Source: Myxococcota bacterium (lineage in GTDB: Bacteria; Myxococcota_A; UBA9160; UBA6930). From it: a DNA stretch of 64,000 bases. The stretch lies in contig OZ245002.1 of assembly GCA_965223415.1 (NCBI GenBank), positions 5,216,001 through 5,280,000 on the forward strand. Direction: 5' to 3'. Under the pieces are notes generated by a model. The model saw only the letters and a list, made by a program, of their open reading frames with translations, was not told where the DNA came from and searched no databases. Positions 3,926 through 33,220 of this stretch are shown here, in pieces. Each line of letters starts with the position of its first letter. Positions within the stretch are counted from its first letter, which is position 1. Made by a program: the position numbers and the translations under genes.

Positions 3926-6286
3926 ATGAGTCTGGGGGCCAGTGCGCTTCTGCTCGCCGTGCTCGTCTCGGCCTTCCATGCGACCGTCGTGCTGCTGGTT
4001 CGGCTCGTTCACGCGGACCGGTCGCGGCCCGCGTTCCTGGCGCGGCCCGCCGGTCGCTCGCCGATCGTGTTGTTGGTCGCGATCGCCGCGTGGATCGCGC
4101 TCTACGCTGCGGAGCTCGTGGTCCCGGGCGAGCAGCTCTCCGTGCGGCTCCACCAGGGGGTCCACGTGGCCATCGCGATGCTGCCGGTGGCGACTCTCAG
4201 CCTCGCGCTGCGCCTCTCGATCGGCACGGTGCGCCGCTCGTGGATCGCTGCGATCTGCGTGATCCCGGCGACCTCCGTGGTACTCAACCTGCTTCAGAGC
4301 CCGACCTTCTGGGTCGCCGAGGGCACTGCGCTCGTGGGCCTGCTGACGCCCGTCCTGACCGCGCACGGCCCCTGGTTCTGGGTCCATGTTTCCTACGCCT
4401 ACCTGGCCCTGGCCAGCTGTCTCGCGGTGATCGGCATGCGGTTGCGGCACCATGCCACGCGCTCCGATCGGCAGGGCCTCATCCTGCTGCTCGCCGTCGT
4501 GACACCGTGGGTAGCCAACGCGGTCTCGCTCTTCACGGGCCTGAGTCCGCACCTCGATCTCACGCCCCTGGGGTGTGCGGTGTCGGCAGCTTGCCTGATG
4601 CGGATCGCGGACAAGAGCCCGTCCCTCTCGCCGAGGCCGGCGGCGAACGCTCTCTCTCTCGACACCCTCGACGAGGGACTGCTCCTCGTCGACGGAGCCG
4701 GGAAGCTCCTCGACGCCAACGCCGCCGCTCTCCGGATGCTCGCGGAGTCGCGCTCCGCGTCCCTGGATGCGCAGCCCGCGCAGCTGGAGCCGGTGTGGTT
4801 TCCCTTGCTGGAGCGGTTGGTGCGAGGCGGTGCCGAAAAGCGACCACTCGAGCTGCCACTGCCCGAGAGCAACATGACCCTCCAGGTCGTCGGAGGCGCT
4901 GTGGAAGACGCCCTGGCCCCGGACCGCCTGCATTCCCTCCTGCTTCGCGACGTCTCGAGGCTCCGGCAGGCCCAGGCGAACCTCCGCAGCCTCCAGGGAA
5001 CCGACGCCGTGAGCGGGACTTCGAGCCGCGCGGCCTTCATGGAAGAGCTCCGCGCCGAGGTCGCTCGGTCCCGCGAACCCGGCGCGGAGCTCGGCCTCAT
5101 CGTCGTGGGCCTGGACGACCTGCGGACCATCAACGAGATCGCCGGGCCTGGCGCCGGTGACTCCCTGCTGGGGCGCACGGGGGCTGAGCTACAACGCCTC
5201 TCCCAGGAAGCCAGCGGCCCCGAGGCCAAGCCGAAGCTGGTCGCGCGGCTCGGTAGCGCGACCTTCGGCGTCGTGGTCGGCCCGGGCATCTCCGAGGTGG
5301 AGCTCCTCGACCTGGCAGGGGAACTCGTCGAAGCGGTCGCCACGGAGCTTCCGGGGCGCGACCGCAGCCTCCGTTCCACGGCACGCGCCGGCATCGCGCG
5401 CTTCCCTCTGGACGCCTCGGATGCCGCTTCGCTCGTGCGAGCCGCGGAGTTCGCGCGCCGTTCCGCACGGGAGGACGGACTCCCGGTGGCCCCCTACCAG
5501 CGGCGGCTCGACATGCGTGCCCAACGCGCCGCCACCCTGACCCGGGATCTCGTGGGCGCCGCTCACCGGGCCGAGATGCGCCTCGTCTACCAGCCTCGTC
5601 TCAATCTCGCGACGGGGCGGCCTTCTCGTGCTGAGGCGCTGCTGCGCTGGCACCACCCGGCGCTGGGCGAGGTCTCACCCGCCGAGTTCATACCCATCGC
5701 CGAGGCGTCGGGAAGCATCGCCGAGGTGGGAGCGTGGGCGCTCACCCGCGCACTGGAACAGCTTGCCACCTGGCGCGCCGAGAAGGTCCCCGTCGATGGG
5801 CTCGCAATCAATCTCGCAGCGCCCCAGCTCTCGGATCCCGGTCTGTTCGGCCTGCTGACGGACTCGCTTCGTGCACTCTCCCTCGATCCCAGCACGATCG
5901 AGCTGGAGATCACGGAGACCTCGCTGCTGCGGCTCGGCGTGGACTCCGCCACCGCCCTTCGCGATCTCCGTGCCATCGGTACGCAGGTCTTCCTGGACGA
6001 CTTCGGCACCGGCTACGCATCGCTGGGCTACCTCAACGAGATCACGCCGGATGGTGTGAAGATCGACCGCTCGTTCGTCACCGATGTCGACCGCATCACC
6101 AACCGGAGGCGGATCTGCTCTGCATTGCTCGCGCTGAGCCGCGAGCTCGGCCTTCGCAGCGTCGCCGAAGGCGTAGAGCGCAGCGAAGAGCTCGATGTCG
6201 TGAGGGGCCTGGGGTGCCACGAGGTCCAGGGCTTCCTCTACTGCGCGCCGATCTCGCCGAACGAGTTGGCCCAGTTCGTGAAGTGA
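3926..6286 (+). CDS. Membrane c-di-GMP phosphodiesterase: 7TM sensor + PAS-like + degenerate GGDEF + EAL
   Basis: Hydrophobic N-terminus with HGPWFWVHVSYAY (HisKA_7TM-like). GGDEF position reads ARLGSATF. EAL motifs AEALLRW, ELEITET, DDFGTGY, KIDRSFV, AEGVE, QGF are intact. Start set at ATG 3926. Confidence 0.9.
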   Translation: MSLGASALLLAVLVSAFHATVVLLVRLVHADRSRPAFLARPAGRSPIVLLVAIAAWIALYAAELVVPGEQLSVRLHQGVHVAIAMLPVATLSLALRLSIGTVRRSWIAAICVIPATSVVLNLLQSPTFWVAEGTALVGLLTPVLTAHGPWFWVHVSYAYLALASCLAVIGMRLRHHATRSDRQGLILLLAVVTPWVANAVSLFTGLSPHLDLTPLGCAVSAACLMRIADKSPSLSPRPAANALSLDTLDEGLLLVDGAGKLLDANAAALRMLAESRSASLDAQPAQLEPVWFPLLERLVRGGAEKRPLELPLPESNMTLQVVGGAVEDALAPDRLHSLLLRDVSRLRQAQANLRSLQGTDAVSGTSSRAAFMEELRAEVARSREPGAELGLIVVGLDDLRTINEIAGPGAGDSLLGRTGAELQRLSQEASGPEAKPKLVARLGSATFGVVVGPGISEVELLDLAGELVEAVATELPGRDRSLRSTARAGIARFPLDASDAASLVRAAEFARRSAREDGLPVAPYQRRLDMRAQRAATLTRDLVGAAHRAEMRLVYQPRLNLATGRPSRAEALLRWHHPALGEVSPAEFIPIAEASGSIAEVGAWALTRALEQLATWRAEKVPVDGLAINLAAPQLSDPGLFGLLTDSLRALSLDPSTIELEITETSLLRLGVDSATALRDLRAIGTQVFLDDFGTGYASLGYLNEITPDGVKIDRSFVTDVDRITNRRRICSALLALSRELGLRSVAEGVERSEELDVVRGLGCHEVQGFLYCAPISPNELAQFVK

Positions 6287-12436: not shown

Positions 12437-12489
12437 CCCTCCCACCCGGCGCGCTCAGGCGCCACCCCCGGCCCTCCGATGCATCCCGC

Positions 12490-13839
12490 ATGGGAGAGAA
12501 CCCCTTCCCCGAGGCCCCGCCCACGGTCCTCCTCGTCAGCCGGGACCCGGAGGCGGCCAAGTGGCTCGATGCGGCTGTTGGCGGCGAGCTGCAGGTGCGC
12601 CAGGCCGAGCCCTCCGAGGTCGCCCGCGGCGCCACCTGGGTCGACGCGGCGGTCGCCGTCGCCCACTGGCGCGAGGAAGACGGCCCTGCAGCCCTCGACG
12701 CCCTGGGCGCCCTGCGCGAGCTGCCGATCGCAGAGCGCGTCGTGCTGGTGGCCGACGTGGAGCCCGCTGAGCTCGATCGCGGCCTCCAGGTCCTCCAGCC
12801 CCAGTGCTGGCTGCCGGATCCGCCTCCGGCGCCGGCCCTGGCCCGTGCCCTGCGGCAAGCCCTGCCCACCCGGCCCGGCGCCGGCGCCCGCCGTGGCCAG
12901 CGCCCGACGGCGGCCCTGCTCGGGGTCAGCGCCGCGCTTCGCGACGTGACCAAGGAGATCCGCCGCGTGGCGCCGACCCAGGCGTCCGTCCTGATCCTCG
13001 GCGAGACCGGCACCGGCAAGGAGCTCGCCGCGCGGGCCGTCCACGACCAGAGCACCCGGGCCGGCGGTCCGTTCGTCGCGATCAACTGCGGCGCGATGCC
13101 GGAGACGCTGCTCGAGAGCGAGTTGTTCGGGTCCTTGCGGGGCGCCTTCACCGGCGCCGAGCGCGACCGCGACGGGCTGTTCCGGGAGGCGGACGGAGGC
13201 ACCCTGTTCCTCGACGAGATCGGCGACACCACCCCCGCCCTACAGACGAAGCTGCTCCGGGTGCTCGAGGAGCGCGAGATCCGCCCGATCGGCGGCTCCG
13301 AGACCCGGCCGGTGAACGTGCGCATCGTCTCCGCCACCCACCGGGACCTGCCCGCGGCGATCGAGGCCGGCGAGTTCCGCCAGGACCTCTACTACCGGCT
13401 CAACACCGTCACCCTCGAGCTGCCTCCCCTCCGACGCCGCCGGGTCGACATCCCCTTCCTGGCCCAGCACTTCGCGGAGGCCTTCGGCGAGGAGAACGCC
13501 CGCCAGATCACCCTGAGCGACGAGTTCCTGGATGCCCTCTCCGCCTACGAGTTCCCGGGCAACGTGCGCGAGCTTCGCAATGCGGTGGAGCGCGCCATCG
13601 CGCTCACGCGGCCCGGCGAGGACGTGCCGGTCTCCGCGCTGCGCGCCGGCCCGACCGGCGGCGCCTCCACCTCGATCCCGACCGGTGGGGGCAGCCTTCG
13701 CGAGCAGGTGGAGCGTCTCGAAGTACAGCTCCTCCGGGAGGCCCTCGCCGAGCACGGCGGCAACAAGACCCGCGCAGCGGAGGCCCTCGGGCTGTCGAGG
13801 GTGGGGCTCGGCAAGAAGGTCAAGCGCTACGGCCTGTAG
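12490..13839 (+). CDS. Sigma54-dependent Fis-family activator (bEBP) with degenerate receiver domain
   Basis: [37 protein letters not shown] and a C-terminal Fis HTH. The N-terminal REC-like region lacks the acidic pair, phospho-Asp and Lys. Confidence 0.95.
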
Positions 13840-13871
13840 CCCGGGCCTCACGCGCGCCGCTCCGCAGCCAC

Positions 13872-13912
13872 CGCCAACCAGGTTGGCGAAGCCGCCGCCA
13901 ACACCGTGAGCG
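13872..13912. promoter_or_regulatory. Candidate bEBP upstream activator sites (two palindromes)
   Basis: Perfect CGCCAACC-A-GGTTGGCG (13872-13888) and imperfect copy CGCCAAC-ACC-GTGAGCG (13896-13912), about 145-185 bp upstream of a sigma54 promoter. Confidence 0.55.
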
Positions 13913-14056
13913 GTGGCGTCCTGGACGCGGCGCTGGGCGACTTCGGGCGGAGCTGCGCAGCGGAGATGCCAGGCGCGACGAATTGCGGCCACCCGGCGCT
14001 CCGCGCCCGCCGAGCCGCCGGGCCGGAGACCGCGGGGTTGCAGGCGCAGCTGCACG

Positions 14057-14072
14057 TGGCACGTGCCTTGCT
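14057..14072 (+). promoter_or_regulatory. Sigma54 -24/-12 promoter
   Basis: TGGCACG-TGCC-TTGCT is an exact match to TGGCACG-N4-TTGCW. Confidence 0.85.
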
Positions 14073-14081
14073 CTAGTCAGA

Positions 14082-14165
14082 GGTCACGAACCAACGAGTT
14101 CCCCCCCAGAGCCCCCCCGACGGACCCGGTCGCCCCCCAGCGGCCGGGTCCACCCCTTCTGGGGG
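14082..14165 (+). ncRNA. Putative sigma54-dependent C-rich small RNA (Pxr-like architecture)
   Basis: Starts at the expected sigma54 +1. Contains C7, C7 and C6 runs and a 12-bp stem GGACCCGGTCGC/GCGGCCGGGTCC (14122-14151) with a CCCCCA loop. No credible ORF. The downstream gene has its own TATACT box. Confidence 0.5.
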
Positions 14166-14188
14166 CGTGCGCGTATACTCGCGCGCCC

Positions 14189-15280
14189 ATGGCAGATCTC
14201 GAGCCGAACGTCGACGCGGCACAGCTGGCGCCCCGCGGCCAGCCCCTCCACACGCGTACGTTGGTCGTGGACGTGATGCGGCACGATCCGGAGACCCTGC
14301 GCGCCGAGGGCCAGATCCTCGACGTCCGCAAGTGCGGCTTCGTGCCCGGCGCCGGTGATCTCCAGACCGCGGGCTTCATCCACCTGATGAAGATCGGCCT
14401 CGGGCTCGACCGGGAGGATCTGCGCATTCGCCGCCTCGAGGTGGACCAGCCGACCGTCGCCTACGAGCCGGACGCGGAGACCACCGGCGGTGAGTGCTGT
14501 CGGGACCCGGCGCCGCGCCTCCAGGCGCTGGTGGGCGAGCGACTGGACGACCGCTTCGCCGCCCGGCTGCGGGAGGTGTTCGGCGGCCCGCTCGGCTGCT
14601 CCCACCTCCTCACCCTGGCCCAGCTGATGGGCTCGAGCCTGCCCCCGGGCCTGGAGCAGGACCAGGCGATCGCCCCGAAAGGCCTTTCGGAACGAAGGGA
14701 TGGAGAACGTCTCTTCAAGCGCACCCTGATCCTCGACGGCCTGGCCGCAGGGCCGGGCCACATGGAGGTGACGGCCCAGCTGAGCGCCTTCCACATGCGG
14801 CCGCGGGAGCGTGTGGACATGCCCCTCGAGCGCCTGGCCCGGCTCCACGAGGTGCACGTGGACGCCCGGATCGGCCTCGAGGAGATGCAGCTCGTCGCTC
14901 TCGACGCGGCGGAGCGCGTGCGGAGCTGGGCGAGCTTCGGGGACGAGTCCTGGACGTCCCGCGCCGACGCGGTGGCTCCGTTCGTCGGGGGCCCTGCCCT
15001 GCGCGGGCTCTCCCGGGCCGTGCTGGAGCGCCTCGGTGGTCGCCCCGAGCACGAGCTGCTGACCGACGTGCTGCTCAACCTGGGACCGTGCCTGATCCAG
15101 TGCCTGGCGGCGACGTCGATGGAATGGATGGCCCGCGCCGCGCGCGGGCCGAAGGATCCCGCGCCGGAGTCCGCGCGCAGCGGACCGGACATGCAGTCGA
15201 TGGGCGGCTTTCCGGACTCCTGCTACGTGTGGCGCCGCGACGGCGCGATGGGCCGACGACGGTTCGGGGGCGACGGATGA
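14189..15280 (+). CDS. DUF2889-domain protein (tandem domains)
   Basis: PLHTRTL, IHLMKI, GGPLGCSHLLTL, a second repeat beginning LFKRTL, and C-terminal DSCYVW. Confidence 0.75.
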   Translation: MADLEPNVDAAQLAPRGQPLHTRTLVVDVMRHDPETLRAEGQILDVRKCGFVPGAGDLQTAGFIHLMKIGLGLDREDLRIRRLEVDQPTVAYEPDAETTGGECCRDPAPRLQALVGERLDDRFAARLREVFGGPLGCSHLLTLAQLMGSSLPPGLEQDQAIAPKGLSERRDGERLFKRTLILDGLAAGPGHMEVTAQLSAFHMRPRERVDMPLERLARLHEVHVDARIGLEEMQLVALDAAERVRSWASFGDESWTSRADAVAPFVGGPALRGLSRAVLERLGGRPEHELLTDVLLNLGPCLIQCLAATSMEWMARAARGPKDPAPESARSGPDMQSMGGFPDSCYVWRRDGAMGRRRFGGDG

Positions 15281-32030: not shown

Positions 32031-33206
32031 ATGGACCTGCACTTCACCGAGGACCAGCTCCGCTTCCAGCGCGACGTGCGCGAGTGGATCGCCGCCAACC
32101 TGGAGCGCCCCTGGAGTGCCGAGCTGCGCGATCCGAAGCACGACCCGGATTCCCTGGTCGAGGTGCGCCGGGCCTGGCAGCGCAAGCTGCACGGCGCCGG
32201 CTTCCTCGGCATGGGCTGGCCCGAGGAGTGGGGCGGCCGGGGCGCCACCGAGGTGGAGAGCGCCCTCTTCGAGGCCGAGCTGGCGCGAGCCGACGCGCCG
32301 GCCATCCCGAACTCCCTCGGCATCGGGCTCCTGGGCCCGGCCCTCATCCACCACGGCAGCGAGGAGCAGCGCCGCCGCTTCATCCCACCCATGCTCAGTG
32401 CCGACGAGATCTGGTGTCAGGGCTTCAGCGAGCCGGGCTCCGGAAGCGACCTGGCCTCGCTTCGCACCCGCGCCGAGCCGGACGGCGACGACTACCGCAT
32501 CACCGGCCAGAAGGTCTGGACCACCTTCGGCCCCTGGGCGAACTGGATCTTCGTGCTCGCCCGCACCGACCTCGAGGACCGCTACGGCGGCATCTCCTTC
32601 TTCCTCGTGCCGATCGAGCAGGAGGGCGTCGAGGTGCGCGGCATCCGCCAGATCACCGGGGAGAGCGAGTTCGGCGAGGTGTTCTTCGACGGCGCCCTGG
32701 CGAGGCGCGAGCACCTGGTGGGCAAGCCCGGCGAGGGCTGGCGGATCGCCATGACCGTGCTCGGCTACGAGCGCGGGGCCACGACCCTGGCCAACCCGGC
32801 CCAGAACGACGGCTACCTGCGCGACCTGATCGAGGGCCTCGCCGCCCGCGGCGACCTCCCGCGCGCCGACGTGCGCGAGACCCTGGGCCGGCTCGTGGTC
32901 GAGAACGAAGTGCTGCGGGCCAACGGGCTGCGCACCCTCGCCAACCTGGCCTCCGGCGCCGCGCCGGGTCCGGAATCGTCGATCGACAAGATCTTCTGGT
33001 CCGAGTACGCGAAGCGGCAATCGGACGCGGCCCTCGACCTGCTCGGGCCCCAGGCCCAGCTGCTGGCCCGATCTCCAGGCGCCCGCCCGGCCGTGGACTG
33101 GGCCTACGCCCACCTCTGGGATCGGGCCGGGACGATCTACTCGGGCTCCTCGGAGATCCAGCGCAACATCATCGCCAAGCGCGTGCTGGCGATGCCGACG
33201 AAGTAG
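32031..33206 (+). CDS. Acyl-CoA dehydrogenase (alpha-type subunit)
   Basis: WCQGFSEPGSGSDLASL, GQKVWTT, TIYSGSSEIQRNIIA. Confidence 0.95.
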   Translation: MDLHFTEDQLRFQRDVREWIAANLERPWSAELRDPKHDPDSLVEVRRAWQRKLHGAGFLGMGWPEEWGGRGATEVESALFEAELARADAPAIPNSLGIGLLGPALIHHGSEEQRRRFIPPMLSADEIWCQGFSEPGSGSDLASLRTRAEPDGDDYRITGQKVWTTFGPWANWIFVLARTDLEDRYGGISFFLVPIEQEGVEVRGIRQITGESEFGEVFFDGALARREHLVGKPGEGWRIAMTVLGYERGATTLANPAQNDGYLRDLIEGLAARGDLPRADVRETLGRLVVENEVLRANGLRTLANLASGAAPGPESSIDKIFWSEYAKRQSDAALDLLGPQAQLLARSPGARPAVDWAYAHLWDRAGTIYSGSSEIQRNIIAKRVLAMPTK

Positions 33207-33220
33207 AGGGGGGAGATCCG

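Follow-up and report, generated by a model that had tools for sequence, protein, structure and literature searches.

Among the small RNAs of the myxobacteria the best studied is Pxr, a regulator of fruiting-body development, and little is known so far about its partners. Small RNA genes under the control of sigma-54 and its activators (bEBPs) include Qrr, GlmY, NfeR1 and the Campylobacter flagellar sRNAs, while RepG of Helicobacter pylori is a small RNA that reportedly targets a G-repeat in an mRNA leader. In M. xanthus, Pxr is described as lying 262 nt behind the gene of its sigma-54 regulator (PMC5568312). It is 108 nt long with three stem-loops, the first loop being reported as necessary for function (PMC5568312, PMC5684412) and accumulation being said to depend on 8 bp of the third stem (PMC5684412). 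Its direct targets are given as unknown in PMC11928866, and ligation data are reported to place Pxr contacts near SD sites (bioRxiv 10.1101/2025.09.11.675593). A precedent for C-rich pairing is the 6C RNA, described as acting through C-rich loops and without chaperones (PMC6486639).

Here we examine a locus of comparable layout in the window, by which we mean the whole stretch of 64,000 nucleotides that was analysed. The source genome, G000, measures 5.83 Mb and forms with five relatives (G001–G005) a set of six genomes from one uncultured, presumably myxobacteria-like genus. The best explanation of the locus, to which we assign a probability of roughly two in three, is a real and genus-restricted cassette of activator, enhancer and RNA, most likely yielding a C-rich, trans-acting small RNA that would repress mRNAs by seed pairing at their ribosome-binding sites. 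No description of this RNA was found in the open-access literature searched.

The locus shares several features with Pxr. In both, a bEBP gene is followed by a gap that holds a sigma-54 promoter and measures 262 nt in M. xanthus and about 243 nt here, and the host is without Hfq, none having been found in a genome that is 97% complete. The terminal stems of the two RNAs are similar, with CCCGG/CCGGG and a pyrimidine tail, and Pxr scores 13.1 bits against R1, our model of promoter plus RNA. An 11-nt stretch, GTTCCCCCCCA, is common to window positions 14098-14108 and loop 1 of Pxr at locus L107, but the seed is of low complexity and the CCCGG/CCGGG pair occurs also in 25 of 640 intergenic G000 hairpins. 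The differences are equally clear. Pxr has three hairpins and here there is one; its seed sits in the SL1 loop, whereas the seed here is unpaired and linear; the shared motifs are not collinear; and its 108 nt compare with about 76 nt here. The activator here also falls outside PxrR's branch and has a different HTH, a pseudo-receiver and no adjoining kinase in the manner of PxrK, the cognate kinase of PxrR. With the Pxr-side bEBP of L107 as query, the window bEBP is the 8th-best match of 21 in G000; this comparison used one PxrR-like sequence and the AAA+ and HTH domains.

The Pxr family model, RF01812 (gathering cut-off 80 bits), did not match the locus even with E values up to 10 allowed, and it recovered the Pxr copy of a Myxococcaceae record (G320) used as positive control at 106.2 bits. 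A 26.9-bit match elsewhere in G000, located downstream of a gene resembling that of the ATP-synthase c subunit, was set aside as unrelated. The earlier note had called the locus analogous, not necessarily homologous, to Pxr, and both the missing RF01812 match and the differing architecture agree with that view. By its sequence the RNA is not a member of the Pxr family; by analogy it may work as Pxr does.

Other known families are no closer. Rfam finds two tRNAs at gathering score in the window and no family, Pxr included, at the RNA. The best weak match is 6C (RF01066; 20.5 bits, E = 2.2, gathering cut-off 47). Common to 6C and this RNA are C-runs of six or more and a proposed chaperone-free pairing, but this RNA lacks the first 6C hairpin and is sigma-54-driven. 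RepG can be likened to it by description alone, a G-repeat target being reported for RepG and none established for this RNA. Qrr, GlmY, NfeR1 and the Campylobacter flagellar sRNAs resemble it, again by description, as bEBP-controlled small RNA genes, and the RNA matches none of them in Rfam.

Anatomy and conservation of the cassette

A check of the sequence found every feature that the earlier note had claimed at its position. The cassette opens with the activator's predicted promoter, TCAGG-N16-CCGATG (12455..12481, plus strand), putatively of the sigma-28 (FliA/WhiG) type and supported as a promoter by a spacing peak and by its conservation in the genus. The activator gene (12490..13839, plus strand) encodes a 449-aa bEBP for which Pfam and the predicted fold give a receiver-like N-domain, an AAA+ domain with GAFTGA and a Fis-type HTH. 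Behind it lies enhancer site 1 (13872..13888; consensus CGACAAC-N3-GTTGTCG), a predicted activator site present in all six genus loci, followed 24 nt downstream by a weaker copy, site 2 (13896..13912), assigned from its identity across the genus. The palindrome occurs as a single exact copy in the 5.83-Mb genome. The sigma-54 -24/-12 promoter, TGGCACG-N4-TTGCT (14057..14072, plus strand), is an exact box in the window and one of 16 perfect boxes in G000, and it is kept in 6/6 genus loci.

The predicted small RNA of about 76 nt (14083..14158, plus strand) stands out as a conserved block without a start codon; its start follows from the spacing to the -12 element and its end from the pyrimidine tail, so that both ends are inferred. 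A single-stranded double C-run (14098..14118, plus strand), single-copy in the genome, is the predicted seed, on the evidence of folding and of the comparison with Pxr. The C-runs lie at 14101-07, 14112-18 and 14133-38 of the same strand, the first C of the last run being part of the stem. The 12-bp hairpin (14122..14151, plus strand) has a C-rich loop (CCCCCA in the window) and a CCCGG/CCGGG core, and pairs in all 5 sequences compared. The folding of the RNA has z = -3.04, with 2/200 shuffles equally stable. Outside the RNA unit, a TATACT -10 box (14174..14179, plus strand), predicted from genus and outside orthologues to be a leaderless promoter, stands 9 nt before the ATG of the DUF2889 gene (14189..15280, plus strand), a downstream neighbour defined by Pfam and locus comparison and probably not in the module. 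Public contigs from two runs of one study, which may itself be the source of the window, span the stretch without a differing letter; this checks the assembly only.

A search of 41 genomes found close orthologues of the activator in 5/5 other genus genomes. Among 30 loci examined, a sigma-54 box stands behind the activator gene in the six genus loci and in L006, and in 0/23 others. Palindrome, promoter, RNA 5' sequence, both C-runs and hairpin recur across the genus, where the RNA 5' part is 77-91% identical to the window, the hairpin 86-90% (3 complete copies) and the promoter 79-95%, against 40-50% for the spacer. The distance from enhancer centre to promoter is 177 nt in four of the six genus loci and 178 nt in two. 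Site 2 has 53-71% identity within the genus and is clear in G003, G004 and G005 and degenerate in G001 and G002. The unit of bEBP, enhancer, sigma-54 promoter and RNA, which the earlier note had held to be distinct from DUF2889, is thus kept in 6/6 genus genomes, and its -24/-12 box and C-runs proved to be conserved at the orthologous loci. For the stem the outcome is divided. Pairing is retained in 60/60 cells of 5 sequences, with G-U pairs and two pairs showing double changes, but 39/500 shuffles score as high, a covariation that is consistent with the hairpin and not significant alone.

Model R1 gives 62-131 bits to the six genus copies, while across 145 further genomes of the order no score exceeds 28.9 bits; 18 of its 24 weaker matches belong to a second sigma-54 RNA family, here called family B. 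The element has no match in viral contigs. The genome collection returned 34 exact matches, of which 3 had a sigma-54 box and a bEBP and 31 were discarded as unrelated, and none of 8 metagenome matches carried the element, so that neither scan added a further lineage. A loose C-run pattern run over 193 genomes returned mostly poly-C noise and was abandoned. The evidence for conservation is that of six related genomes of one genus, in which the G001 and G005 loci are interrupted by contig ends and the 3' half of the G005 locus is the start of L151. These two of the six assemblies break inside the C-runs of the RNA (G005 at the L003 end and L151 start, G001 at the L005 end), and such RNAs may for that reason often be missing from metagenome assemblies.

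The activator, its kin and a second promoter

Pfam matched the AAA+ and HTH domains of the activator and no receiver family. Its N-domain is nevertheless predicted to adopt a (beta-alpha)5 fold (block pLDDT 69-89), and by eye none of the acidic pocket, the Asp at the end of beta3 and the Lys is conserved among 11 aligned orthologues. With a predicted receiver-like fold and without conserved phosphorylation residues, the protein falls outside the phosphorylated NtrC-type response regulators, which upholds its earlier description as a pseudo-receiver activator. GAFTG is replaced by GSFTG or GAYTG in 5 of the 11 orthologues, and Foldseek returned generic bEBPs only. The reading frame of the G002 gene (L007) breaks near codon 314, through either an assembly error or a true lesion, and the gene was for that reason kept out of the protein alignment and the tree.

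In a tree of 35 AAA+/HTH sequences, the five intact genus activators cluster (100/100) and form a clade with the cluster-linked and other orthologues (100/99), with the Pxr-adjacent bEBP of L107 outside. The label of orphan given to this bEBP describes its location well, no kinase gene lying beside it in the window; it does not extend to the activator family, which sits in kinase clusters in other genomes.

Upstream of the activator gene, TCAGG-N16-CCGAT[AG] is found in 6/6 genus loci, and N16 is kept in 1/6 other orthologue loci. Motifs of the TCAGG type upstream of genes show 41 matches at N16 against 0-7 at other spacings. The wider class TCA[AG]G-N16-[CT]CGAT[AG] precedes about 50 G000 genes, among them pilin-, PilB-, PilT-like and response-regulator genes (named by eye), and the TCA[AG]G-N16 class also occurs upstream of window position 3926. 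The genome holds one FliA_WhiG gene and one rpoN gene over cut-off. From the consensus of that class we take the motif to be of the sigma-28 type, and propose that a sigma-28-type factor transcribes the activator gene. This predicted, conserved promoter is a correction to the earlier reading of the activator.

The activator's enhancer has a counterpart elsewhere in the genome. When 103 sigma-54 boxes were scanned with a weight matrix of the enhancer, just two promoters exceeded 13 bits, that of the RNA and that of a secreted-protein gene in a kinase cluster of G000, where a second site pair (G000:C1:1182357-1182398) lies 179 and 154 nt before the sigma-54 box. G004 has the same arrangement, with sites 178 and 153 nt before the secreted-protein box. 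Recurrence of the site pair at a second sigma-54 promoter gives independent support to the enhancer assignment, and it counts against the notion of a switch dedicated to the RNA, which the earlier note had proposed. At least in these two genomes, the activator probably serves more than the RNA and may also drive the secreted-protein gene of the kinase cluster.

The secreted-protein gene is present in 9/193 genomes of the order and in one of five genus relatives, with a sigma-54 box at all 10 loci; the query used did not find it in the other four relatives. In four genomes (L238-L241), a bEBP of the activator's family stands directly before the sigma-54 box and the secreted-protein gene, and the kinase cluster carries such a bEBP in six other genomes, not in G000 or G004. 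The cluster in G000 (G000:C1:1176600-1186530; L139, L234) comprises a Lnt-like protein, a membrane sensor kinase, the secreted protein, a sensor-only membrane protein and a hybrid regulator-kinase. The secreted protein matched no Pfam or NCBIfam family. A protein behind the bEBP orthologue of L006 looks like the secreted protein by eye, gave no tblastn match at 1e-3 and was not counted. The best-scoring enhancer-like palindrome of the genome, with a weaker copy, lies between convergent genes at G000:C1:982032-982080, with no sigma-54 box within 320 nt.

In relatives, an activator with this enhancer and promoter appears to drive a secreted protein; in the genus they stand before a predicted non-coding RNA, flanked by two genes that adjoin each other in other genomes. 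It is likely that the non-coding RNA came to lie behind one copy of this set of activator, enhancer and promoter, though the sequence in which this happened is presumed. Read in this way, the cassette is an unusually clear case of the origin of a regulatory RNA gene.

Proposed action of the RNA and rival readings

In the mechanism that we propose, the activator likely binds the two palindromes behind its own gene and, once bound, likely switches on the predicted 76-nt RNA through the sigma-54 promoter. Lacking phospho-acceptor residues, it would be controlled by its amount or by a partner, not by phosphorylation. The RNA would end at the hairpin and pyrimidine tail, an end made either by weak termination or, as in Pxr, by trimming of the 3' side. 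Its exposed C-runs would base-pair with several mRNAs at their G-rich ribosome-binding sites and block translation without Hfq. A small peptide encoded by the RNA was rejected, there being no ATG, GTG or TTG before 14167.

The locus could also be read as the 5' leader of an operon of DUF2889, SurE, TPP enzyme and CoA transferase genes, with the RNA as a cis attenuator and its C-rich part as a Rho loading or protein site. Such a leader is favoured by the position of DUF2889, which adjoins in the same orientation in 5/5 genomes with a visible locus, by the lack of any canonical terminator behind the RNA, and by the ability of the window's first C-run to pair beyond the hairpin. An RNA ending at 14160 leaves the three C-runs open (unpaired 0.85, 0.88 and 0.83), whereas read-through to 14170 pairs the first with 14158-14166 and lowers its mean unpaired probability to 0.17. 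DUF2889 has, however, a -10 box of its own, as the earlier note had held: TATACT stands 9 nt before the ATG, with no SD site, in 5/5 genus copies. A similar -10 pattern occurs in 6/16 orthologues from other genera, all of them without the RNA, and among the 10 unmatched ones several had starts beyond the stretch examined. The pattern matches a leaderless-type signal of the genome, in which TANNNT peaks 6-10 nt before starts (628 matches among 5252 genes called by a simple gene caller). The spacer between hairpin and DUF2889 also varies in length and sequence, and the downstream G-run is missing in G003.

The gene order points the same way. In 3/16 outside loci (L155, L156 and L159, from other genera) the beta-lactamase-like gene, the 97-aa gene and DUF2889 follow one another directly, with no cassette; in the genus it sits between the 97-aa gene and DUF2889. 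Since relatives of the activator are found at other places, it is simpler to assume that the cassette was inserted in the genus than that it was lost in other genera. The leaderless-type box of DUF2889 and the adjacency of the gene pair without the cassette favour a separate RNA, and we consider the leader reading unlikely. Nor is the weak terminator fatal to a discrete RNA, since RNase D is described as shortening a longer Pxr precursor (PMC10217877) and an rnd-like gene, below cut-off, is present in this genome.

If the RNA is discrete, silencing of mRNAs through G-rich ribosome-binding sites, as proposed for Pxr, is its likely mode of action by analogy. The 16S 3' end carries a canonical anti-SD. 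The one target suggested earlier, a G-rich ribosome-binding site at 33206-33215, did not hold up: it ranks 965/5252 by duplex energy, and its six-G run is absent in both orthologues of the gene behind it that were found across 5 genomes. Perfect seed matches of 9-11 nt occur at 11/5252 starts, including fabH-like, RomR-like, PseB-like and rpoA genes (named by eye). Seed-complementary sites before starts are not enriched, with 7-12 per genus genome and 5-20 in relatives of similar size without the RNA. For the best candidate, the fabH-like gene, a run of at least six G at the ribosome-binding site is found in 4/6 genus and 5/15 other genomes (p = 0.33). The longest perfect match (11 nt, at a sigma-54 regulator gene) was dropped, no orthologue being found at E <= 1e-110 in 5/5 genus relatives, as was a ranking by whole-seed duplex energy, which placed GC-rich noise first. 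No candidate is established as a target. The start of the presumably RomR-like regulator gene at G000:C1:4600179-4602188 (minus strand) is preceded by GGGGGGAAC, and the string GGGGGGAACATG is present in several genomes of the order by string match.

The want of a target signal suits a different role for a discrete RNA, in which it would bind a protein (a poly-C binder, Rho or a reader of CCCGG/CCGGG) or sponge another RNA without blocking ribosome-binding sites. The CCCGG/CCGGG core is constant in 5/5 hairpins, and in family B GCCCGG/CCGGGC is constant in 18/18 while neighbouring pairs covary, as expected of a protein site. Pure C seeds, however, have many weak targets, so that absent enrichment has little power, and the C-run RNAs treated in PMC6486639 are described as pairing with messengers. 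We therefore regard a protein-binding or sponging role as improbable. Less credible still is an element that acts as DNA or is a relic, whether as a terminator hairpin for the activator gene or as a G-quadruplex tract on the template strand. Three or four G-runs on the bottom strand would fit the latter, but conservation extends to the promoter, to the spacing of the enhancer and to the single-stranded 5' part, and the hairpin, its stem including G-U pairs, lies 280 nt behind the stop codon and after the promoter; we hold this reading to be very improbable. Repression by seed pairing at ribosome-binding sites remains our preferred account.

A second sigma-54 RNA family and wider meaning

Family B is represented in the same genome at G000:C1:1522721-1522825 (L146, L178) and has the bulge ACCCCUCC. 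Its 22 base pairs include 13 with double changes, a score reached by 0/500 shuffles, and it has an invariant CCCCUCC bulge, its own palindromic enhancer and a convergent gene downstream. It occurs in 23/24 sampled genomes of the order, 4/4 of one other family of the class and 0/123 other genomes of the phylum that were sampled, and it matches no Rfam family. In addition to the genome, it shares with the cassette RNA a sigma-54 promoter, an A/C-rich leader, a GCCCGG/CCGGGC stem and an exposed C-rich motif. It differs in being widespread in the order, in having an inner hairpin and another enhancer, and in having no bEBP adjoining. A promoter-free model of family B, R2, scores its members at 40-88 bits and four genus copies of the cassette RNA at 10.1-11.0 bits, and at the window's copy it gives no match at E up to 3; at these scores, homology of the two RNAs is not established. 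R2 also matches the 3' half of Pxr (15.3 bits, E = 0.069), which is suggestive only of a kinship between family B and Pxr.

These likenesses allow a broader reading, which we regard as doubtful. The cassette RNA, family B and Pxr would be offshoots of one sigma-54 RNA scaffold of myxobacteria-like lineages, made up of a GUCAC start or linker, an A-rich spacer, a CCCGG/CCGGG terminal stem and an exposed C-seed, with the invariant stem read by a protein that substitutes for Hfq. The copy studied here would be young, having taken over the secreted-protein enhancer and promoter and joined a cascade from sigma-28 to sigma-54 to RNA. Should the cassette act as we propose, its sigma-54 C-rich RNA, wired independently of Pxr and carrying the Pxr loop sequence, would be a second case of the design and would indicate that it recurs beyond the fruiting myxobacteria and in an Hfq-less host.

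Two further elements of similar appearance were seen. A 14-bp hairpin between convergent genes at G000:C1:3407913-3407948 has the loop ACCCCTCC, which is the family B bulge motif, and no sigma-54 box was seen there. On an unrelated metagenome contig (L105:2501-2590), a sigma-54 box is accompanied by a pair of C-runs, a long T tail and a hairpin whose loop is rich in C, and this is probably another C-rich sigma-54 RNA.
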